From NCBI RefSeq assembly GCF_044647545.1, contig NZ_CP172818.1: a stretch of DNA of 64,000 nucleotides; one strand, 5' to 3'. The stretch comes from Escherichia coli (GTDB lineage: Bacteria > Pseudomonadota > Gammaproteobacteria > Enterobacterales > Enterobacteriaceae). The position numbers and the translations under genes are program-made. The notes beneath the pieces were generated by a model, which saw nothing but the letters and a program-made list of their open reading frames with translations, did not search any database and had not been told where the DNA came from. This document shows, piece after piece, positions 21,319 to 48,032 of the stretch (position 1 is its first letter; every line of letters starts with the position of its first letter).

Positions 21319-22932
21319 ATGAAGCACTCTGTTTCAGTCACGTGTTGTGCGCTGTTGGTCAGCAGCATTTCTCTTTCGTATGCTGCTGAAGTTCCGAGCG
21401 GCACAGTACTGGCAGAGAAGCAGGAGCTGGTGCGCCACATTAAAGATGAGCCTGCGTCGCTGGATCCCGCTAAAGCCGTGGGCCTGCCAGAGATTCAGGT
21501 CATTCGCGATCTGTTTGAAGGACTGGTGAATCAGAACGAGAAAGGGGAGATTGTCCCCGGCGTTGCGACTCAGTGGAAAAGTAATGACAACCGTATCTGG
21601 ACATTTACCCTGCGCGATAACGCAAAATGGGCGGATGGCACTCCGGTAACGGCGCAAGATTTTGTCTACAGCTGGCAACGTCTGGTGGACCCAAAAACAT
21701 TGTCGCCATTTGCATGGTTTGCCGCGCTGGCGGGAATCAACAACGCACAGGCGATTATTGATGGTAAAGCCACGCCTGACCAGCTTGGCGTCACCGCAGT
21801 TGATGCCCATACTTTGAAAATCCAGCTTGATAAACCGTTGCCGTGGTTTGTGAATTTAACCGCTAACTTTGCCTTCTTCCCGGTGCAAAAAGCCAACGTA
21901 GAAAGCAGTAAAGAGTGGACGAAACCCGGAAATCTGATCGGCAATGGCGCTTATGTTCTTAAAGAGCGCGTAGTCAATGAAAAACTGGTCGTAGTGCCGA
22001 ATACCCATTATTGGGATAACGCCAAAACGGTACTGCAAAAAGTGACCTTCCTGCCAATTAATCAGGAATCCGCAGCCACTAAGCGTTACCTCGCGGGGGA
22101 TATTGATATCACTGAATCCTTCCCGAAAAATATGTATCAGAAGCTGTTGAAGGATATTCCGGGGCAGGTTTATACGCCGCCGCAGCTCGGGACCTATTAT
22201 TATGCGTTTAACACGCAAAAAGGGCCGACGGCAGATCAGCGCGTTCGCCTGGCATTAAGTATGACGATAGATCGCCGCCTGATGACCGAAAAAGTATTAG
22301 GGACGGGCGAAAAGCCAGCGTGGCATTTTACACCAGATGTTACCGCGGGATTTACGCCGGAACCTTCGCCGTTTGAACAAATGAGTCAGGAAGAACTGAA
22401 TGCGCAGGCAAAAACTTTGTTGAGCGCAGCTGGTTATGGTCCGCAAAAACCGCTGAAGCTGACGCTTTTGTATAACACTTCAGAAAACCATCAAAAAATT
22501 GCGATTGCTGTAGCATCAATGTGGAAAAAGAACCTTGGCGTAGATGTTAAATTGCAAAATCAGGAATGGAAAACCTATATCGATAGCCGTAACACCGGCA
22601 ATTTTGATGTTATCCGCGCCTCGTGGGTAGGGGATTATAATGAACCCTCCACTTTCCTGACATTATTAACGTCAACGCATTCCGGGAATATTTCACGCTT
22701 TAACAATCCGGCATATGACAAAGTTCTGGCCCAGGCATCGACGGAAAATACCGTTAAAGCGCGTAATGCCGATTACAACGCGGCAGAAAAAATCCTCATG
22801 GAGCAAGCACCGATTGCACCAATTTATCAATATACCAATGGACGATTAATCAAGCCGTGGCTGAAAGGTTATCCCATTAATAACCCTGAAGATGTGGCGT
22901 ACAGTCGGACTATGTATATTGTGAAGCATTGA
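21319..22932 (+). CDS. mppA: periplasmic murein tripeptide-binding protein
   Basis: ORF 21298-22932; likely ATG at 21319 (MKHSVSVTCC...); family 5 solute-binding protein with signal peptide. Confidence 0.9.
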   Translation: MKHSVSVTCCALLVSSISLSYAAEVPSGTVLAEKQELVRHIKDEPASLDPAKAVGLPEIQVIRDLFEGLVNQNEKGEIVPGVATQWKSNDNRIWTFTLRDNAKWADGTPVTAQDFVYSWQRLVDPKTLSPFAWFAALAGINNAQAIIDGKATPDQLGVTAVDAHTLKIQLDKPLPWFVNLTANFAFFPVQKANVESSKEWTKPGNLIGNGAYVLKERVVNEKLVVVPNTHYWDNAKTVLQKVTFLPINQESAATKRYLAGDIDITESFPKNMYQKLLKDIPGQVYTPPQLGTYYYAFNTQKGPTADQRVRLALSMTIDRRLMTEKVLGTGEKPAWHFTPDVTAGFTPEPSPFEQMSQEELNAQAKTLLSAAGYGPQKPLKLTLLYNTSENHQKIAIAVASMWKKNLGVDVKLQNQEWKTYIDSRNTGNFDVIRASWVGDYNEPSTFLTLLTSTHSGNISRFNNPAYDKVLAQASTENTVKARNADYNAAEKILMEQAPIAPIYQYTNGRLIKPWLKGYPINNPEDVAYSRTMYIVKH

Positions 22933-37901: not shown

Positions 37902-38837
37902 TTATTTCACTTCAACCACATTCAGTCGTAACTCATCCAACTGATTTTCATCTTCTTCAGGCTGCCAACCCGCCGGTTGTAGAGGGATCTCTTCGCGATC
38001 AAACGCCAGATCACCCCCGTTAACCACTTCAGAACCGTGGGTAATGCCTTTGAAATCGAACAGGTTGGTATCGCACAGATGCGACGGCACCACATTCTGC
38101 ATCGCGCTGAACATCGTCTCGATACGCCCCGGATAACGTTTATCCCAGTCACGCAACATGTCAGCAATCACCTGACGTTGCAGGTTAGGCTGTGAACCGC
38201 ACAGGTTGCACGGAATAATCGGGAACGCTTTTGCATCGGCAAAGCGCTGAATATCTTTCTCGCGGCAGTAGGCCAGCGGACGAATAACGATATGTTTGCC
38301 ATCATCGCTCATCAGTTTCGGAGGCATACCTTTCATCTTGCCGCCGTAGAACATATTTAAGAACAACGTTTGCAGGATATCGTCACGATGGTGACCCAGC
38401 GCGATCTTCGTCGCTCCCAGTTCCGTTGCGGTACGGTAAAGAATTCCGCGACGAAGACGAGAACACAGTGAGCAAGTGGTTTTGCCCTCCGGAATCTTCT
38501 CTTTCACGATACCGTAAGTGTTCTCTTCCACAATCTTGTACTCAACGCCCAGTTTTTCAAGATACTCGGGCAGAACGTGTTCCGGGAAGCCCGGTTGTTT
38601 TTGATCGAGGTTGACAGCCACCAGCGAAAAATTGATTGGCGCGCTTTGCTGCAAATTGCGCAGAATCTCCAGCATGGTATAGCTGTCTTTACCCCCTGAG
38701 AGGCAAACCATGATGCGATCGCCTTCTTCAATCATATTGAAGTCAGCAATGGCTTCGCCCACATTACGACGCAGACGTTTTTGTAATTTGTTCAGGTTGT
38801 ATTGTTCTTTCTTACTAATTTCTTGATTTTCTTGCAT
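37902..38837 (-). CDS. ttcA: tRNA 2-thiocytidine synthase TtcA
   Basis: 311 aa ORF with PP-loop SGGKDS motif and paired CxxC motifs; its 5' end overlaps the prophage attachment repeat. Confidence 0.85.
38788..38830. repeat. prophage attachment-site direct repeat (attL copy)
   Basis: ttgttcaggttgtattgttctttcttactaatttcttgatttt, identical to 61887-61929. Confidence 0.75.
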
Positions 38838-38888
38838 TATTTCAGTTCTCTGGTACTAAATGGGGCAAATTGGGGGCAAACTTTGCAA

Positions 38889-40119
38889 CTACGATAACCG
38901 CGCATTCAACATGGCTATCTGTTCGTCGTTCATGTCATCAATCCACATACCGTAAATTTCATACACCATCTGCGCAGTTTCATGCCCCATTTGGCTGGCT
39001 ATAAATGCCGGGTTCGCTCCTGCCGTCAACAGCCAGCAGGCAAAAGTATGCCGCGTATGGTACGGATTACGGCGGCGAATACCAGCACGTTTTACTGCTG
39101 CATTCCACCTTGCCCCCAAACTGCTTACCGAGTAATAAGGTTTTTGTTTTCCGTTACACACCCTGGGCATGAAAACAAAATGCAGTTTTTGCTTTTCGGT
39201 TCTGCATACTGCCGATAATAAAAGGTGACGACTTTTGCGATGATGCCCGGTCAGTTTGTATTGCTCCTTCAGTGCTTCAAGAGCAGGCTGCAGTAGTGTT
39301 ACTGTTCGGATCCCGGCATTTGTTTTTGGGGGACCGAACATATCGAGCCCTCGTCAGGTTTCTTCTGACATTCACTATTCCCTTTTCGAGATCCACATCC
39401 TCCCACGCCAGAGCTGCCAGTTCCCCGTGACGAAGTCCTGAGTAAACGGCAAAGTTCCACAAGTTCTCGCTATCTCCTTTTTCACTTTCCATTAATGCAT
39501 TGAATTCTGTTTTAGATAACGGATCAGGCTTTATTCTGTTCGCTGTAATTTTTTTACTCCTTCAAATGGTTTGGTTGATATAAATCCGACTGATACGCAA
39601 AACGCAACAGCGAACAGAGCAAGGCAATATCGTATCAACTGTGCGCACGGTTCTTCCTTTTTTGTTGGATCTTGGATTATCCAGGTAAAGCGTTTCTCCA
39701 TGCAGCAGTTCATTCCGGTAGTTTAAGATATCGCTATAACGAATATGTGATATCGGGGTACTTTCACAAATTATTATTCTGAGTGTTTTTAATTGTGATT
39801 TCGTTTTCTTCATTGTGTTTGTTGTTAACTCTGTCTCTTTAATTTTTGTCCAGATATCACAAAGCTCTCCGAACGTTTTTATGACTCTCGTTGTCACCAT
39901 TTTTGCCCCAGTGCTGGACTGGGGAAAACGTCTTAAATACTCAAATTCACCGGAGTTTATTTCATGAACTATCAGCGCTCTTAAATTTCCGGCCTTTTTA
40001 ATATTACTGTTTGTAATCTCCCAGCCTTTTAATGTTTCCCGACATCGTTTTCCTCGAAACATGAACCAGATGCGAATGTATCTACCTCTAATCTCGACAC
40101 CTGTTGGTAATTTAGACAT
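38889..40119 (-). pseudogene. intR: prophage tyrosine integrase, reading frame broken by at least two frameshifts
   Basis: Three consecutive minus-strand ORF fragments (39562-40119, 39277-39492, 38889-39341) together resemble one tyrosine recombinase (MSKLPTGVEIRGRYIRIWF...; ...LRHGELAALAWEDVD...; ...RHTFACWLLTAGANPAFIASQMGH...EIYGMW). Confidence 0.75.
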
Positions 40120-40120
40120 A

Positions 40121-40336
40121 TCATGAGTCTTTGATAAACTGATTTATCTTTGGATAGTTGTACCAGATAATCCCTCGTTTGCTGTCTGGCTTACCTAAAG
40201 GAGATACTCGTTTGAAGTGGAAGCCCTCCACCCAACAGTTCTGGCGGTATGCTTCAATTTGTCTGGCCCCCAGACCAGTGCGAAGCATCAGGCCGTATTC
40301 AACCATCCACTCTTCATTAAAGATTACTTGTGCCAT
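40121..40336 (-). CDS. xisR: excisionase-like protein
   Basis: ORF 40121-40360; likely 71-aa product from [15 protein letters not shown]...; immediately upstream of the integrase as in lambdoid int-xis modules. Confidence 0.7.
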
Positions 40337-40414
40337 CGCATCACCTCTGGCAGGCGCCAATGTTAGACTGAAATTGACGCCCGATGTTGATTATTAATAA
40401 TCAGCTATGAAGTT

Positions 40415-40696
40415 TTAATTTGAATACAATGCAATTCTCGAGGACTGAAGTTTCTCGCAATTAAAATTTATCAGTTTTACTTTCTGCTCTCTGGAAACGC
40501 CTGCTTCTTTTTTACCTGAGAGCATTTTTTCGCATTCTGATTTCGTTAGTTTAGATTTTGAATATCTTGTCCAGTTAGTAGGAGTGCCACCTTCCTTTTC
40601 AATAGTGGCGGTAATTTTATACATGAACACCTCCATTATTATTTCCAGTGGTTCGTTTATTCCATCTTTCGAGTGCTTCTTTTTCACTTCCACCAT
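40415..40696 (-). CDS. ydaC: prophage protein of unknown function (alternative internal starts give a 69-73 aa product)
   Basis: 93 aa maximal ORF; internal Met candidates (MEVFMYKITATIEKEGG...); overlaps the 3' end of ralR. Confidence 0.6.
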   Translation of the reverse strand: MVEVKKKHSKDGINEPLEIIMEVFMYKITATIEKEGGTPTNWTRYSKSKLTKSECEKMLSGKKEAGVSREQKVKLINFNCEKLQSSRIALYSN

Positions 40697-40811
40697 AACC
40701 GGTTCGGGATTCGCATCCGTTACACTTCGCTCGGTAATATCCTGAAATGGCTTTCACCGTTACTGATGGACAACCACAAAATGGACATGGTTTAACATTG
40801 TCATATCTCAT
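40617..40811 (-). CDS. ralR: restriction alleviation protein RalR (Lar-like), toxin of a type I toxin-antitoxin pair
   Basis: ORF 40617-40850; likely 64-aa product MRYDNVKPCPFCGCPSVTVKAISGYYRAKCNGCESRTGYGG... with Cys4 zinc-ribbon pattern. Confidence 0.7.
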   Translation of the reverse strand: MRYDNVKPCPFCGCPSVTVKAISGYYRAKCNGCESRTGYGGSEKEALERWNKRTTGNNNGGVHV

Positions 40812-40867
40812 AATTTTTCTCATAAAAAATATTTCAAGTTGGCGGTGCATTACACCGCCAGGCTGAA

Positions 40868-41677
40868 TTATTCCTCTGAATTATCGATTACACTGTATTC
40901 CCCGGTTAATACAGAGGAATCTGCAGGATCGATTGTCAGTGGTTCCTTTTCATCCATTGATACTGCACGCTGGATCTCAATTGATACGGGCAAATATTTG
41001 AACAGGCGACGAATAGCCGTTTTCTTTGCCATTTCTTCCCAGTGAGTTACCCACGGCCCGTTATTACCAGCTTTACTCAGGCTGCGCACCAGCTCAATCT
41101 GTTTGCGCGTCATAACTTCAAACTGAGTACCTCCGTCTTTCAGTCTTGCGACAGCATAGACGTGGGTAACCGGGGCATCTTCGTTTTCTCCCGGGCGGTG
41201 TATTAACTTTTCATCAAGGCCAAATTCGAAGCTAAACTCGTCACCTTCACGGACAACACGGGCTGACAGGCTGGCGATTTGACCAGAACGGCGAGCCAGA
41301 TCAATCATGCCGCGATAGCCAATGATTAGCTGAACGTTCTTTTTACCGCTCTTTTCGTTTTTATTACCAAAAGGCAGTAAATATGCATGACCGAGGGCGC
41401 TACCTGGCTCAAGTCCGAGCTGTGAACACTGTACGATCGCACTGACAAAACTCATAGTGTCACAGTTTCCTAACGCCGGAACTTTACGAATTTCTGTGGT
41501 GGCGATACGGATCATACGTTCAGCCGTCATATGGCGTGGAAGAGCTGCTGCCAGTTGCTCTTTCATTGATGGCTGGTTAATAAAACTAATCACGTCGCTA
41601 TTTTTAACTGCTGCTGGTGCACGGTTTCCCTGAGTTTTTTGCAGATCGGCTTTTGCGATTGGTGGTTGCTTAGTCAT
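40868..41677 (-). CDS. recT: single-strand annealing recombinase RecT
   Basis: ORF 40868-41734; likely start [16 protein letters not shown] at 41677; matches recalled RecT. Confidence 0.9.
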
Positions 41678-44312
41678 TTGCATATTCCTTAGCCCAGCGG
41701 GGCAGTGATAATGTCTTAATAGCTGGCCATTCATCGGTATTCAGGCAGTCAGACAGGGTTCGCAGATTGCGGTGATATTCCTGTTGACCTGCCAGTTTTG
41801 CTTCTTCGCCCATCATGAAAATTTCAACCGGATAACGTCCGCATTCAATAGTTGTGCTGGCAACCAGAAAAACGAAAGTTGGCTGCACTCCAAACTGTGC
41901 TTCATAACCGTCACTGTAGAATGCATCCTGAACGTGATAGCGGTAGTCGTAATAAGCGGTTTTGAATCGTTGAATATCCGCCGTAGTTTTCACGTCCATG
42001 ATCCAGTGAAATTCAGGGATAATTTTGTCCGGACGGCACCGACACAAAATTCCTGTTTCAGGATCTTCCCAGTAAATTGATGATTCAGCGTGTCCGGCGC
42101 TTTCAACAAGCCATTGCCCCAGCGGCAAAGCCATAACGCTTTGATACATGAGTTCAATTTTCCGGCCTTCTTCCGCAGTGATAACCGTTTTTCCTGTGCT
42201 TGCGCATTCCATCAGAAACGCTTTCTCTTCTTCTTTTCCGGCGTTTGTACGGCGGTTAAATTCAGGTGCTACGATAAAGCGGTTACTGAATTCTTCCGGT
42301 TCAAGTACCCGGCAGTGGAAAGCAGTTCCTAAATCGAGCGTTTTTGTCTTTGTGGTGTCCACGGGGGCATTTTTACGCCACAAATATAGTGCCGGAGTAT
42401 CAGCAATGTCATCGAGCTGAGACTTACTGATACCGGGACCCGCGTGGTAATTCTCATTCGAAATTCCGTAATAAATACCTGGCTCTATGTCTTCTACGAT
42501 TAAGGGATCTGACGCCTCGCCAGTTTCACTATCGCTGGCATGATGCTGATTGCTGCCAGTGTTCTCCTTGTGCTGATGCGCAGTGCCTTCCATTTCCTCC
42601 AGATCATTTTTCTGAACTTCAGGCTGATTCTCTCCATCGAATATTTCCTGGTATGTTGCGTCACCCATCACCGCACCACAATCAGGGCAGTTGCCGCCAC
42701 CGCTCTGACCGCAGGCGGTGCAGATCTTTTCCGGTTCCTGTTGCACTACTGGTTCAGGTTGTTTCGTTTCTGGCTCGTTTTGTTGCGTATTTGGGCTGTT
42801 TTGTTCCGCTTTCTGGTCGTTCTGTTCCGTTTCTTGCTGGTTCTGGTTCACAGAATCGCGGGTCTGGATCCCCTTAATCCATTTCGGATCATTCGGGTCG
42901 CTAATCCCTTCAACAAATTCACCACGTGATACTGCAAGCAGTTCATCGTCATCGACAGGATTTTTTGATGGAATGTTTTTCCGGGCTTCATGGAGTTCTG
43001 CCCGCAGTTCCTGATATTTCGCATCAACAGAATTTACCTGTGACTGAGCATCCAGCGGCTGCGTGTCCTGATGATGTTCAGTTGCGTCCGGTTCCATTGT
43101 TTCAGCCTCTCCCTGTTCAACTGCCGTTGTTCCAGATGGTTGCGGTTTTTCTTCATCATCCTGTTTTCCTTCTTCTGTTACTCGCTGCGGCATCGGGGCA
43201 GAGGAGCGACCGCAGGCAATATCCACGATTTCCGGATCAGGGTTGGCATGATCGGTTTCAGTCAGTACTTTGTTCAGATATTCAGTGACGTGCGCGGGGA
43301 TGACCTCGATCCCAATTGGTGCTTCTTTTACGGACGCAACCACGATGGCGCGGGAATAATCCAGCCCGCCAGGCATGGTGATGAATTTGTCGCGGAAAAC
43401 AGAAAAGGGCGGTTTATTTTCAGCGATAATTTCCTCAATGCGTTTAGCGTGTGCCGGATGAAGGTTATAGATGTCCAGATCCATTGAACGGGCCAGTACG
43501 CCAGTGGCTACGTCGCGCGCCAGTGACGTCAGATCGTGTACGAAACCTTCGCCGCGATCGGTGAGGTTTCCGCCGCCAGCATTAGCACCGGAAGCCGTGC
43601 GAGTGATGTGTGAAACACGATTACCCTTCATCCACTCTTTTGTCAGCAGTCCTCGATCGGTGTAGTCAGCGTTCAGGTATGCTTCGAAAAAAGCAGTTAT
43701 CAGTCCCAGGTTTGAATTACCAGGATTAGGGAAAACTTTGTCAGTGTCACGAACCAGTTTGTGGAGTTCGCGAATTTCCAGCGGGTCGAGCAGGCTGGTT
43801 TTGTGGGAAACAGCCAGGGCAGTAACAGCCGGTAGTTCTTCAGCCCGAGCAATGTGTAATGCCTGGAGTCCGTCGCGTGAAACGTGCGTTACCGGTTTTT
43901 CGCTGCCGTGTTGAGCAAGCCAACGAATGGGCAGTTCCTGGCCAGAAATTGGGAGTAGCATATTCTCCTCAATCTCAGTCATGTCTTCGCCGTTGACGTT
44001 GGTATTGCCTTGATAGTGAGCGTTGTCTGGTGCTGCTCCCGGTTTTAGTTCCCATGTCATGGAGTCTTTGCTGAGTTGATAGCGTTCACTCCAGGTAAAA
44101 TCGATCTCACCTTCAGCGGGCAGGTCATTAACGACAGGAAAATTCGTGGCAACAGCTTTAAAATAGCTGCTCAGTTTTTTACCTGACTTAACGATCAGGT
44201 AGTCCAGAGTGGCACAGGTCGATTCAAAATCGTTGCTTGCCCACAGGACGACGTCAGGTTCACCGGATGATTTTTTCGCTTTCCGTAACAGGAAGAGTGG
44301 TTTTGTGCTCAT
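41670..44312 (-). CDS. recE: exonuclease VIII (RecE)
   Basis: 880 aa ORF beginning [24 protein letters not shown]; Q/E/P-rich central linker; overlaps recT start by 8 nt. Confidence 0.9.
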
Positions 44313-44413
44313 TGTTTTTTAACCTCAACTCAGATTAAAATTCGTTTTGTTCAGTGAATGATCTTGCCGGATACACACTGTTCATAGCCTGCGCCATACG
44401 CAGGCTATTTCTT

Positions 44414-44689
44414 TCAGATTTCACCTTTTAATTTCATTGCAATTAGAGTTGCCAGAAATTCGGCTTTTTTTTCTGCGGGCAGATTCTTTCCGATATGCAC
44501 CAGGCACATTTTTTTGACACCTTCATCAAGTGTTTTTACGTTGCCTGATGGACCATCGATATCAACCACAGTGAATGGGGTTTCTTTATTTTCTGTTTTA
44601 ATTACGTAGCCAATGCGCTTTCCTTCCAGATTCACCTCGTGAACAATGTCATCGGTAGTTACAACAGTGGCTTCATAATTGGTAATCAT
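44414..44689 (-). CDS. racC: prophage protein RacC
   Basis: ORF 44414-44737; likely 91-aa product MITNYEATVVTTDDIVHEV...; upstream of recE. Confidence 0.7.
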   Translation of the reverse strand: MITNYEATVVTTDDIVHEVNLEGKRIGYVIKTENKETPFTVVDIDGPSGNVKTLDEGVKKMCLVHIGKNLPAEKKAEFLATLIAMKLKGEI

Positions 44690-44763
44690 GTTTTTCTCCT
44701 TAATTAAGGTTGAGCGAATACCTGCCATTTCTGGCATAAATTCAGTTTCGAATAGTCAATTAA

Positions 44764-44934
44764 TTAAAGTTCATGTGCCATCTGGTCTTTTTCGGCACAA
44801 GCTTCACTGCAATATTTTCTCGGTTCGTCTTTTGATAAAATCCCGTGCATGAAGTGAAGCATTCTTTCAATAGCTTTGCTTTCTTCAACGTCTTTTTTGC
44901 AAAGGTGGTAAGCACATTTTATTTTCTTAGTCAT
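44764..44934 (-). CDS. ydaE: small prophage protein YdaE (Cys-rich)
   Basis: 56-aa minus-strand [59 protein letters not shown]; start overlaps kilR stop; below ORF-track cutoff. Confidence 0.55.
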   Translation of the reverse strand: MTKKIKCAYHLCKKDVEESKAIERMLHFMHGILSKDEPRKYCSEACAEKDQMAHEL

Positions 44935-45155
44935 CACCATGACTCCGCCTTTACAGGTAAACCATCACGACCGAGGAAGACTTTAATCATGCGGTCAGTA
45001 ATGAATGTTTTTGTGGTCAGGTTACGAATATATAGTTTTCGCTTTTTAATATTGTTTGCCGAGGCAATATATGTCCGGCCTTCATGAAGAACATAATCGC
45101 CAGGAGTCACACACTGACGTGGTATTTCATCAGTTCCGAAGTGATGTGCAATCAT
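44934..45155 (-). CDS. kilR: cell-division inhibitor KilR
   Basis: ORF 44934-45167; 73-aa product [40 protein letters not shown]... matches recalled KilR. Confidence 0.8.
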
Positions 45156-45596
45156 AATTATCTCCATTTTTACAAATGAACTTTGTTGATGCGGTGTCTG
45201 GTGCCTCCAGGTGACTGCAACCAGTTAACAATTACAGTCGGCTTTCCCACCCAAACCAATAAGGACTAACATGACTTTTAACTGTGCCACGTGCGCTTAG
45301 CCGCATTCACCGCATCACAAAATTCACTTTAAAAAGGGCGGACATCAGCCGAACTTCAAGAAAAAAACTGATGCCGCCAGGACTACACACAGCAATGTCG
45401 TTATTTACAACCGGAGGCGCACTCCCACCATTTAAATTTAACAGACAAGACCGACTCTTTATGGATATCGGAAATGCGCCTTCGTGTTGTGCCCGGTTTT
45501 ATTTCACCACCTCCGGGCTTCGGTGGTCTCGGCTATACCCCTACAGCGAGAGCTTGTGTTAACATTTCAATACCCTTACAGTTGAGAGTTATTGAT

Positions 45597-46085
45597 ATGT
45601 TGGATGTATTTACTCCATTGTTGAAACTTTTTGCTAACGAGCCACTCGAAAGACTTATGTATACGATTATCATTTTTGGTCTCACTCTCTGGCTGATACC
45701 GAAAGAGTTTACTGTCGCATTCAATGCTTATACTGAAATACCTTGGCTCTTTCAGATTATCGTTTTTGCCTTTTCTTTCGTGGTCGCCATTTCCTTCTCA
45801 AGATTGCGAGCACATATTCAAAAGCATTATTCATTACTACCAGAGCAACGAGTATTGCTTCGTTTATCTGAGAAAGAAATCGCTGTATTTAAAGATTTCC
45901 TTAAAACAGGAAATCTTATTATCACTTCTCCTTGCCGTAACCCGGTTATGAAAAAATTAGAACGGAAGGGCATCATTCAACATCAGAGTGATAGCGCAAA
46001 CTGTTCTTATTATCTCGTCACCGAAAAATACTCCCATTTTATGAAGTTATTCTGGAACAGCAGGAGTAGACGTTTTAATCGTTAG
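45597..46085 (+). CDS. sieB: superinfection exclusion protein SieB
   Basis: ORF 45474-46085 without upstream in-frame start signal context; likely ATG at 45597 (MLDVFTPLLKLFANEPLERLMYTIIIFGLTLWLIP...), membrane-anchored N-terminus. Confidence 0.8.
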   Translation: MLDVFTPLLKLFANEPLERLMYTIIIFGLTLWLIPKEFTVAFNAYTEIPWLFQIIVFAFSFVVAISFSRLRAHIQKHYSLLPEQRVLLRLSEKEIAVFKDFLKTGNLIITSPCRNPVMKKLERKGIIQHQSDSANCSYYLVTEKYSHFMKLFWNSRSRRFNR

Positions 46086-46237
46086 CTTACTGTGTGCTTC
46101 TCCAACCATCGGCGCGCACCAGTTTCGGTTTTAAATGTTTTGCTTTTGGTATACGTCATGGCAGTGAACGTTCCATCCTGGTTGGGGAACACGCCGCACA
46201 CCAGGGATTCGTTGTTGCCGAGGTCGATTTTTTGCAT
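46082..46237 (-). CDS. ydaF: small prophage protein YdaF
   Basis: 51-aa minus-strand ORF MQKIDLGNNESLVCGVFPNQDGTFTAMTYTKSKTFKTETGARRWLEKHTVS; below ORF-track cutoff. Confidence 0.5.
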   Translation of the reverse strand: MQKIDLGNNESLVCGVFPNQDGTFTAMTYTKSKTFKTETGARRWLEKHTVS

Positions 46238-46247
46238 TTTGCGAATC

Positions 46248-46382
46248 TCACATCTTGTTGCTACGTATAGCGACTTCTGCCTGCCAGAGATCCCAGTCGT
46301 TGCTGCGTAAAGCCTGCACAGCCTGGTTGTAAGTGATACCGCAACAATCCATCAAATACTGAACTACTTCGTAATGCACCAT
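46248..46382 (-). CDS. ydaG: small prophage protein YdaG
   Basis: 44-aa minus-strand ORF MVHYEVVQYLMDCCGITYNQAVQALRSNDWDLWQAEVAIRSNKM; below ORF-track cutoff. Confidence 0.5.
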   Translation of the reverse strand: MVHYEVVQYLMDCCGITYNQAVQALRSNDWDLWQAEVAIRSNKM

Positions 46383-46551
46383 CTTATCTCTCCCCTTAAC
46401 GCCGGGTGGCGGAACTAACTGCTGCACTGCAAAATTTGAATCCCGCCGTCATGTTCATACGCCTCGGGCTGGCTACTTAACCCCTTACCACTGCCTGGTA
46501 ACTCGAAGTATTGCCCGGCGTTCTGTGGGGCGGGGTGGGTGGTATGCTGGA

Positions 46552-46596
46552 ACTATAGGTAATGCCTAATTGATTGTCAATAGGCTATGCCTAATG
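46552..46596 (-). promoter_or_regulatory. leftward early promoter (PL-like) with overlapping operator half-sites, downstream of racR
   Basis: Minus strand reads cctaTTGACAat-17 bp-TATAGT; TGCCTAA/TTAGGC half-sites at 46563-46570 and 46581-46595 (taggc-tat-gccta inverted repeat). Confidence 0.4.
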
Positions 46597-46690
46597 TTTT
46601 GAGCGTAACCTAATAGGTGATGGCGACAGCAGAAAGTGATGGGGGGGTTAAATAACGGAATCCAGGAGTTTTCCGTCAGACCATATAAGT

Positions 46691-47167
46691 TTAAGTTCCA
46701 GTTTTTGTGATGTTCTGGCTTTTCCGTTCAGATTCAAGAGCTTTCAGATACTTACCCACTTTCATTTCCATCGCTGCTATGTAGGCGCGAACATCGTGGT
46801 CAACCCAATCTGGTTCTGTAGCATTTCCAGATAACAGGAAAGCTACAATCGCTCTTATTTCATCAGAGGCTGCTTGATAAAGGTTGTTTATATCTAAAAG
46901 TTCACTTTTTGTATCTGAATTGGTGGGGGTTGGTATGGGGTATTCGTTAAGCCCCCAATGCTCTGGACCAACAACATCAGAAAAGAAACGCCATAATTCT
47001 GGAAGTTTATCTTTACTTATAGAGCCTTTCTTAATCCAGTCATAAATTGATGGTGGTTGGACTTTAAAGTGGCGTGCGACCTCCGCCTTTGATTTGACGG
47101 ATCCCGATGCGATTTTTTTGTTAATGGCCTGCTCTATCGCTCGGCCTAAGTCTTTACCACTAAGCAT
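46691..47167 (-). CDS. racR: prophage repressor RacR (cI-like role)
   Basis: 158 aa ORF with N-terminal HTH-like region; divergent from ydaS; flanked on both sides by operator-like repeats. Confidence 0.8.
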   Translation of the reverse strand: MLSGKDLGRAIEQAINKKIASGSVKSKAEVARHFKVQPPSIYDWIKKGSISKDKLPELWRFFSDVVGPEHWGLNEYPIPTPTNSDTKSELLDINNLYQAASDEIRAIVAFLLSGNATEPDWVDHDVRAYIAAMEMKVGKYLKALESERKSQNITKTGT

Positions 47168-47194
47168 TGCTTAATATTCTCCTATGCGCATTAC

Positions 47195-47264
47195 ATTAGG
47201 CAATCCCTACCCTTACTGCATTAGGCACAGCCTATTGACAATTGCGTTAGGCGTCGCCTAATAT
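47195..47264 (+). promoter_or_regulatory. rightward early promoter (PR-like) with operator repeats between racR and ydaS
   Basis: attaggca at 47195-47202 and 47220-47227; cctaTTGACAat at 47231-47242; perfect palindrome ttaggcg-t-cgcctaa at 47247-47261 in the spacer; TAATAT -10 at 47259-47264. Confidence 0.45.
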
Positions 47265-47290
47265 TTCTGTGTGTTTTTGGAGTTCATTCG

Positions 47291-47587
47291 ATGAAAAAAG
47301 AGAACTATTCATTCAAGCAAGCTTGTGCTGTTGTCGGTGGGCAATCAGCAATGGCTAGGCTTTTAGGTGTATCACCTCCAAGCGTAAATCAATGGATCAA
47401 AGGGGTACGTCAATTGCCTGCCGAGAGATGTCCAGCAATTGAACGTGCAACAAGAGGTGAGGTTCTGTGCGAAGAACTTCGTCCTGATATTGACTGGTCA
47501 TATTTACGACGTTCGGCATGTTGTTCGCAGAATATGTCAGTGAAGCAACTAAATGACAGTAACAAATCCTCATTTGATCATACCTGA
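47291..47587 (+). CDS. ydaS: Cro/HTH-like small DNA-binding protein YdaS
   Basis: 98 aa ORF with HTH (FKQACAVVGGQSAMARLLGVSPPSVNQWIKG); first gene of rightward operon. Confidence 0.8.
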   Translation: MKKENYSFKQACAVVGGQSAMARLLGVSPPSVNQWIKGVRQLPAERCPAIERATRGEVLCEELRPDIDWSYLRRSACCSQNMSVKQLNDSNKSSFDHT

Positions 47588-47609
47588 AACATCAAGAGGC
47601 AAATGATTC

Positions 47610-48032
47610 ATGAAAATCAAGCATGAGCACATCGAATCAGTGTTGTTTGCCCTAGCAGCCGAAAAAGGGCAGGCATGGGTAGCCAATGCAATTACTGAAG
47701 AATATCTGCGCCAGGGGGGCGGCGAATTGCCCCTGGTTCCAGGCAAGGACTGGAACAATCAGCAGAATATCTATCACCGTTGGTTGAAAGGTGAAACGAA
47801 AACGCAAAGAGAAAAAATTCAGAAGCTGATCCCAGCAATTCTGGCAATCCTTCCGCGCGAGCTGCGTCACCGACTCTGCATCTTCGATACCCTGGAACGC
47901 CGTGCATTACTGGCGGCGCAGGAAGCGTTAAGTACGGCAATTGATGCGCATGATGATGCAGTCCAAGCCGTTTACCGGAAAGCGCATTTCAGCGGCGGCG
48001 GTTCTTCCGACGATTCTGTCATTGTTCATTAA
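47610..48032 (+). CDS. ydaT: prophage protein YdaT (cII-position protein)
   Basis: 140 aa ORF immediately downstream of ydaS. Confidence 0.8.
   Translation: MKIKHEHIESVLFALAAEKGQAWVANAITEEYLRQGGGELPLVPGKDWNNQQNIYHRWLKGETKTQREKIQKLIPAILAILPRELRHRLCIFDTLERRALLAAQEALSTAIDAHDDAVQAVYRKAHFSGGGSSDDSVIVH

Follow-up and report, generated by a model that had tools for sequence, protein, structure and literature searches.

The window (the whole 64-kb stretch of DNA that was analyzed) carries Rac, a cryptic prophage of E. coli K-12 that is approximately 23 kb in length, and a window coordinate equals the MG1655 coordinate minus 1,373,074. The repressor gene racR (46691-47167, minus strand) encodes a protein of 158 amino acids. 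A 123-bp intergenic region separates it from ydaS (47291-47587, plus strand), which encodes a Cro-like protein of PHROG 35 (transcriptional repressor) and is followed on the right arm by ydaT, ydaU, and ydaV. On the left arm, ydaG, ydaF, kilS, kilR, ydaE, racC, recE, recT, ralR, rcbA, xisR, and intR lie on the minus strand, and only sieB and ralA lie on the opposite strand. This open reading frame and gene map agrees with the gene order that an earlier reading of this DNA (the original prediction) had given for both arms. For comparison with other genomes we used 219 loci with 104 distinct flank pairs, whose RacR proteins form 8 clusters at 90% identity; these lineages come from Escherichia, Mixta, Morganella, and Proteus and share 56-99% protein identity.

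Two outward-facing early promoters flank racR. Leftward, a PL-like promoter on the minus strand (46580 to 46552) matches the consensus used in our scan at 11 of 12 positions. It consists of the -35 element TTGACA (46575-46580), a 17-bp spacer, and the -10 element TATAGT (46552-46557). It is the top sigma-70 match of the entire left arm (38800-46600), in which no second 11/12 promoter was found. A -35 element of the form TTGAC(A/T) is retained in all 8 RacR lineages, and the -10 element is TATAGT among the E. coli lineages and TAATAT among most distant lineages; in one, a viral contig that we call L129, it is TACCAT. The predicted start site, 4-7 nt past the -10 element, would lie at 46545-46548 (MG1655 1,419,619-1,419,622). 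Rightward, PydaS, the equivalent of PR, lies on the plus strand at 47235-47264 and has the structure TTGACA-18-TAATAT, a 10/12 match. The scan therefore recovers both of the outward promoters with 17-18 bp spacers that had been proposed from the sequence. The 12-mer said to be shared by the two sides of racR, CCTATTGACAAT, is likewise present, with exactly two copies in the 64 kb, at 46573-46584 on the minus strand and 47231-47242 on the plus strand, in opposite orientation. Allowing up to one mismatch, the expected number of copies is 0.35 and two copies were reached in 4 of 100 shuffles; by itself the count is marginally non-random. A mirrored similarity of 83% extends over 35 nt across racR (46573-46607 against 47208-47242). 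The case for these cassettes is carried by their operator dyads and by the comparison among lineages, not by the count of the 12-mer.

The RacR-type sites around these promoters are best parsed as 15-bp dyads, TTAGGC-N3-GCCTAA. On each side of racR the order of elements is [TTAGGC-N3-GCCTA]-TTGACA-N5-[TTAGGC-N3-GCCTA]-(-10), such that one dyad adjoins the -35 element, its final base doubling as the first T of TTGACA, and the other occupies the spacer and reaches into the first bases of the -10 element. The half-sites listed in the original prediction are all where it placed them, but its parse was incomplete. On the left it gave TAGGC-TAT-GCCTA and missed that the site in the spacer, TAGGT-AAT-GCCTA, is a full dyad too; on the right it gave a palindrome and two copies of attaggca, both of which are the left halves of full dyads. 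Five dyads with at most 2 mismatches occur in the 64 kb, all of them inside 710 bp around racR, and hence none occurs elsewhere in the 23-kb prophage. In 200 shuffles that preserved dinucleotides, no more than 2 such dyads fell within 750 bp, against the five seen here. The hexamer TTAGGC itself is under-represented in the window (11 copies observed, 25 expected), and 7 of its 11 copies fall in 46564-47261. Neighboring dyads are spaced, center to center, by 25 bp on the left and by 25 and 26 bp on the right. Each promoter is overlapped by operators of a single consensus, with two dyads and a weak third on the left, and three and a weak fourth on the right.

On the left, OL1 (46555-46569; ATAGGT-AAT-GCCTAA, 2 mismatches) lies in the spacer of the PL-like promoter and shares 3 bp with its -10 element (46555-46557). 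Its half-sites are unchanged in alleles that are 86% identical and are found in all lineages examined. OL2 (46580-46594; ATAGGC-TAT-GCCTAA, 1 mismatch) adjoins the -35 element and is likewise kept in all lineages examined, with a variable N3 spacer. A weak candidate for OL3 (46599-46613; TTGAGC-GTA-ACCTAA) is centered 19 bp from OL2. It has 3 mismatches in K-12 and 2 in some alleles, and its conservation is limited to the E. coli lineages; 41 of the 104 distinct loci have a third downstream site with at most 2 mismatches. Overlapping this candidate is a perfect 11-bp palindrome, ACCTAATAGGT (46608-46618), which is invariant in all aligned E. coli racR alleles amid variable flanks and is absent at the Mixta, Morganella, and Proteus loci. 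Its half-sites are arranged in reverse, tail to tail. Read as a standard operator spaced at 25/26 bp, it misfits the dyad consensus, and we favored the weak dyad at 46599-46613 instead.

On the right, OR1 (47247-47261; TTAGGC-GTC-GCCTAA, no mismatches) lies in the spacer of PydaS and overlaps its -10 element, OR2 (47221-47235; TTAGGC-ACA-GCCTAT) adjoins the -35 element, and OR3 lies at 47196-47210 (TTAGGC-AAT-CCCTAC); the latter two have at most 2 mismatches. A weak dyad with 3 mismatches, CTAAGC-ATT-GCTTAA, covers the racR start codon (47160-47174) and matches better in distant lineages (1-2 mismatches). These sites are known. OR1 is the site protected by RacR at the lowest concentration in a published footprint, OR2 is also among the published RacR sites, OR3 falls within the DNase I protection over the racR promoters, and the dyad over the start codon is the published operator O3, i.e., the fourth repeat (PMC9638921). 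Krishnamurthi et al. (2017) reported three repeats between racR and ydaS, demonstrated binding of RacR by thermal shift, ChIP-qPCR, and EMSA, and found the ydaS promoter to be silenced in a RacR-dependent manner (PMC5700373). By primer extension, Wisniewska et al. (2022) located a single start site for ydaS; they also abolished promoter activity by replacing the TAATAT -10 element, mapped three racR promoters, one of them leaderless, and derived from a RacR DNase I footprint the half-site ATTAGGC and the W-TAGGC-n3-GCCTA-W dyads that they named O1-O3 (PMC9638921). Later work counts four inverted repeats (PMC11014345), and the promoter, called PydaST and recognized as the equivalent of PR, reaches up to 25,000 Miller units (PMC11879457). 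The motif and the right-hand sites described here are the same as those of the published operators (PMC5700373, PMC9638921, PMC11014345). Given that the start site, the -10 element, and the RacR footprints had already been published, the right-hand part of the original prediction is a rediscovery. As a prediction of operators, it is not new for this half, which was published between 2017 and 2025 (PMC5700373, PMC9638921, PMC11879457); for the left half it is strongly backed by comparison.

For that left half, the searchable literature yielded no description of either the dyads or the promoter that lie downstream of racR (46552-46594), and an earlier description elsewhere is possible. In the text available to us of the published RacR operator papers (PMC5700373, PMC9638921, PMC11014345), only sequence upstream of racR is analyzed. 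A search for published start-site, ChIP-exo, or CRISPRi data over a ydaG promoter returned nothing usable; a PL that is silent in wild-type cells would be missed by standard start-site maps.

We compared the sequence downstream of racR across lineages. The left cassette is found there in 8 of 8 lineages and at all 104 distinct loci, amid unrelated flanks. Wherever a locus has enough flanking sequence, at least 2 dyads follow racR, with one apparent exception, L129, in which the cassette is intact but displaced by a further 1.1 kb downstream, beyond three inserted open reading frames. These encode 108, 89, and 124 amino acids and lie between the racR homolog and the OL/PL cassette of that viral contig (1969-3068), in the position that is taken by rexAB in lambda or by the paaA2-parE2 pair in CP-933P. 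Comparison of racR alleles with approximately 86% DNA identity shows that half-sites, -35 element, and -10 element are invariant, and changes fall in the N3 spacers and the linkers between operators. In Mixta, Morganella, and Proteus, where RacR identity is 57-62%, the N-terminal 75 residues are the same and racR again has these dyads on either side. Their downstream cassette reads TTAGGC-N3-GCCTA-TTGAC(A/T)-N5-ATTAGG(C/T)-N3-(A/G)CCTA-ATAT, and it lies in flanks without recognizable similarity to K-12. The left and right cassettes mirror one another, as copies of one design, in each lineage in which our pattern search recovered both. This pattern points to clear purifying selection on the left cassette across genera, and the identity of the left dyads to the right-hand ones, along with their conservation, suggests that RacR binds them. 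Two contigs in our collection, whose RacR regions match at 100% and 92%, are labeled as 'Candidatus Nanosynbacter' and 'Lachnospiraceae' metagenome-assembled genomes; almost certainly they come from E. coli prophages and were mis-binned.

The boundaries of the immunity region can be read from phages that carry other repressors. Phage vB_EcoS-666R9, which has a different repressor, is 99.7% identical to positions 44000-46544 of the window, is unrelated over 46545-47603, and resumes homology at 47604, shortly before ydaT. Its replacement segment carries a repeat family of its own, flanking its own repressor on both sides. The same junction recurs in thousands of E. coli genomes, whose prophages of other immunity lose homology at 46544-46549. 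In this collection the ydaG leader is matched in 3768 of 5426 genomes and the RacR-type region in just 1085; the partial matches stop at 46535-46549, and mostly at 46542-46549. The junction coincides with the predicted PL start, 4-7 nt downstream of TATAGT. Since the break in homology falls at this point, we assign the left operators to the RacR specificity module. The module, PL/OL-racR-OR/PR-ydaS, spans 1.06 kb (46545-47603), and the repressor, the cro-like gene, and both operator sets are swapped as one mosaic unit. YdaS travels with it, as is expected of a Cro analog. Phage vB_EcoS-683R6 (ON470595.1, a 55.7-kb record) has the whole RacR-type region with both cassettes at 97.6% identity (21340-22260), and the RacR module may therefore also reside in complete, possibly viable, phages, beyond the defective K-12 prophage.

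From the predicted PL start to the ATG of ydaG, a leader of approximately 165 nt (46380-46544, minus strand) is 85-99% identical among prophages and phages with quite different immunity regions. At its 5' end the leader reads AUACCACCCACCCCGCCCCACAG, a stretch rich in C and poor in G that resembles a Rho-loading (rut) site. A structured RNA or nut-like element in this leader was considered and rejected, given that no Rfam match was found over 45900-47700, which is weak evidence against a structured RNA or nut site, and that the predicted fold is unremarkable (z = -1.76). N/nut antitermination at PL was not detected, and ydaG and ydaF match only PHROGs with no known function.

Published depletion experiments bear directly on whether a leftward promoter is under RacR control. 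When RacR was depleted by blocking racR transcription, racR mRNA fell approximately 100-fold (PMC6765115, PMC11014345). Under these conditions ydaC, kilR, and ralA rose more than 70-fold and ydaF, ydaG, ydaE, and racC approximately 40-fold (PMC6765115), and xisR and intR rose approximately 100-fold (PMC11014345). On both arms of the prophage, increases of 40- to 100-fold upon loss of the repressor have been published (PMC6765115, PMC11014345). Since transcription of racR was itself blocked, read-through from the racR promoters cannot be the source of the leftward increase, and since the leftward genes rise while racR mRNA falls, a separate RacR-sensitive leftward promoter is required. Zygotic induction of the rac recombination genes is also on record, as cited in PMC5917428.

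Three other explanations of the left cassette were weighed against these data. One is that there is no dedicated PL, such that leftward transcripts come from read-through past trac or from an indirect effect of YdaS or YdaT, and the left cassette is a decaying duplicate. A Rho-dependent terminator, trac, has indeed been reported inside racR, where it guards cells against expression of kilR, and read-through from the racR promoter upon failure of trac is a second route to kilR (PMC4150792). In addition, expression of YdaS reportedly triggers excision of Rac (PMC11879457), and the leftward derepression that follows loss of RacR could be partly indirect, via YdaS or YdaT. As a full account, however, this explanation appears very unlikely to us, because it must accommodate a 40- to 100-fold increase in leftward transcripts while racR transcription is cut approximately 100-fold (PMC11014345), a cassette under clear purifying selection across genera, and its retention in L129 despite displacement by 1.1 kb.

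The left dyads might instead be auxiliary operators only, like lac O2 and O3, that serve looping for repression of PydaS and autoregulation of racR, with the embedded promoter going unused. An octameric repressor (PMC11014345) and dyads paired on either side of racR would suit such looping. We consider it very unlikely that this is their whole role, given that an 11/12 promoter is embedded among the dyads, with TTGAC(A/T) in 8 of 8 lineages amid unrelated flanks and a good -10 element in all lineages but L129; that the module junction falls exactly at the predicted +1; and that the leftward genes are derepressed while racR mRNA drops (PMC6765115, PMC11014345). There is next to no chance that the palindromes are intrinsic terminator hairpins rather than protein-binding sites: a consensus scan flags 46581-46593 and 47246-47262 on the plus strand as terminator-like, but the stems measure just 5-7 bp, the left hairpin is antisense to racR, loops change with no compensatory substitutions and with the half-sites held fixed, and the right palindromes are footprinted by RacR (PMC9638921), so both flags were discarded as false positives.

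We therefore return to the reading in which the region is, very probably, a complete lambdoid immunity region, with mirrored promoter-operator cassettes around racR and with RacR silencing both arms. The arrangement of PL, repressor, and PR put forward in the original prediction is supported by the conservation of the left cassette in 8 of 8 lineages and by the module edge at the predicted PL start. RacR dimers would bind the TTAGGC-N3-GCCTAA dyads via the conserved N-terminal helix-turn-helix. One dyad (O1) would cover the spacer and the first -10 bases and the other (O2) would adjoin the -35 element, so that RNA polymerase would be excluded. On the right, RacR silences PydaS and with it ydaS-ydaT-ydaU-ydaV, a step that has been demonstrated experimentally in the literature. 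On the left, RacR on OL1 and OL2 would silence the strong PL-like promoter, whose transcript would begin near 46545 and run through ydaG, ydaF, kilR, ydaE, racC, recE, recT, ralR, and rcbA to xisR and intR; no convincing intrinsic terminator was found on the minus strand of the left arm. A drop in the RacR level would cause both arms to fire at once.

The RacR protein is not a member of the CI/LexA-type family. Its N-terminal 75 residues are near-invariant between genera. Its helix-turn-helix yields only weak profile matches (HTH_17, 0.0047; YdaS_toxin, 0.073). Neither a Peptidase_S24 match nor any Pfam match at E ≤ 0.001 was found, and a sequence search of the PDB found no relatives. In published models the N-terminal domain is CI-like, with five helices, and the C-terminal domain has a different, unrelated fold (PMC11014345). 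Residues 18-46 of RacR and residues 9-37 of YdaS (46694-47167 and 47291-47584 compared) are 41% identical over 29 residues of the helix-turn-helix, a stretch that includes the PPS(I/V)xxWIK recognition segment. This suggests that the TTAGGC half-site is recognized by RacR and YdaS alike, perhaps at OL as well.

RacR is an octamer by size-exclusion chromatography, and the authors of that work assign the octamer to the four dyads in the racR-ydaS intergenic region rather than to bridging between OL and OR (PMC11014345). Given the spacing of adjacent dyads (25-26 bp) and the reported octamer, the four strong sites might be bridged by a single octamer on OL1, OL2, OR1, and OR2, whose centers on the two sides lie 641-692 bp apart, which would loop out approximately 0.65 kb containing racR. 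That the octamer forms such a lambda-style bridge, rather than four dimers on the intergenic region, is a possibility that we rate at somewhat less than even odds. If it is true, the switch would be a case of long-range looping that evolved convergently, built on a C-terminal oligomerization domain unrelated to that of CI, with autoregulation set by the weak OL3 together with the dyad at the racR ATG. The distances from OL2 to OR2 in the window (46587 to 47228) and five other loci (L002, L003, L129, L173, and L176) are 641, 642, 639, 611, 613, and 1610 bp, or 61.05, 61.14, 60.86, 58.19, 58.38, and 153.33 turns at 10.5 bp per turn. The three E. coli values are near whole turns and the other three are not. 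Helical phasing was dropped as evidence because independent lineages are too few.

The arrangement resembles that of lambda, OL1-3/PL - rexBA - cI - PRM/OR1-3/PR - cro - cII with OL-OR looping by the CI octamer. In Rac, too, outward early promoters flank the repressor gene, each under tandem dyads of a single consensus that lie approximately 2.4 helical turns apart, and one repressor mRNA is leaderless (the published PracR3). The right arm has Cro-like and CII-like genes, the left arm has recombination, kil, xis, and int genes, the immunity region is swappable as a module, and the repressor is oligomeric (octameric). The insertion between the racR homolog and OL in L129 recalls rexAB, which lies between cI and OL. 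The two systems also differ. The Rac dyads are 15 bp (6+3+6) and those of lambda 17 bp; OL and OR are approximately 0.65 kb apart in Rac and 2.3 kb apart in lambda; the first gene under PL is ydaG, whose product has 44 amino acids, rather than N, and no nut site was detected; a fourth dyad covers the racR start codon; and YdaS is reported not to repress racR (PMC9638921). The C-terminal domain of RacR is not an S24 peptidase, and hence RacR would lack the RecA-mediated cleavage of CI. Because RacR lacks the LexA/CI-type S24 domain, with its autocleavage, the label 'lambda-like' given in the original prediction fits the PL-repressor-PR wiring of the system and does not extend to membership in the CI family.

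Another close parallel is the PaaR2/YdaS/YdaT switch of CP-933P in E. coli O157:H7, which has the same gene layout, homologs of YdaS and YdaT, and reported repeats both in the repressor-ydaS intergenic region and in a downstream region with the promoter PL933P (PMC8630535). It differs from Rac in its repressor, PaaR2, in its operators, which are 18-bp palindromes of the GTTTAGTAA type, and in the toxin-antitoxin pair between repressor and PL (PMC8630535). The insertion in L129 is comparable to this pair. Since PL933P had already been noted, the concept of a PL in such a region has a precedent with a different repressor. The left half of the Rac region is an element to be expected in this well-understood type of switch, though one that appears not to have been mapped. 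The layout is an ordinary lambdoid one of modest novelty, and it leaves the general picture of lambdoid regulation unchanged.

What the left half adds concerns RacR itself and the genes that it guards. An exact 1.06-kb immunity module, swapped among very common E. coli prophages, is now defined, and the reported RacR octamer becomes a testable model of OL-OR looping. Few transcription factors of E. coli K-12 are essential, and RacR is among them; the published explanation for this runs solely via PydaS. A mapped PL/OL would place under direct RacR control KilR, an inhibitor of FtsZ and MreB, the RalR toxin, the RecET recombination genes that are used in recombineering and known from the classical zygotic induction of rac, and the excision genes xisR and intR.
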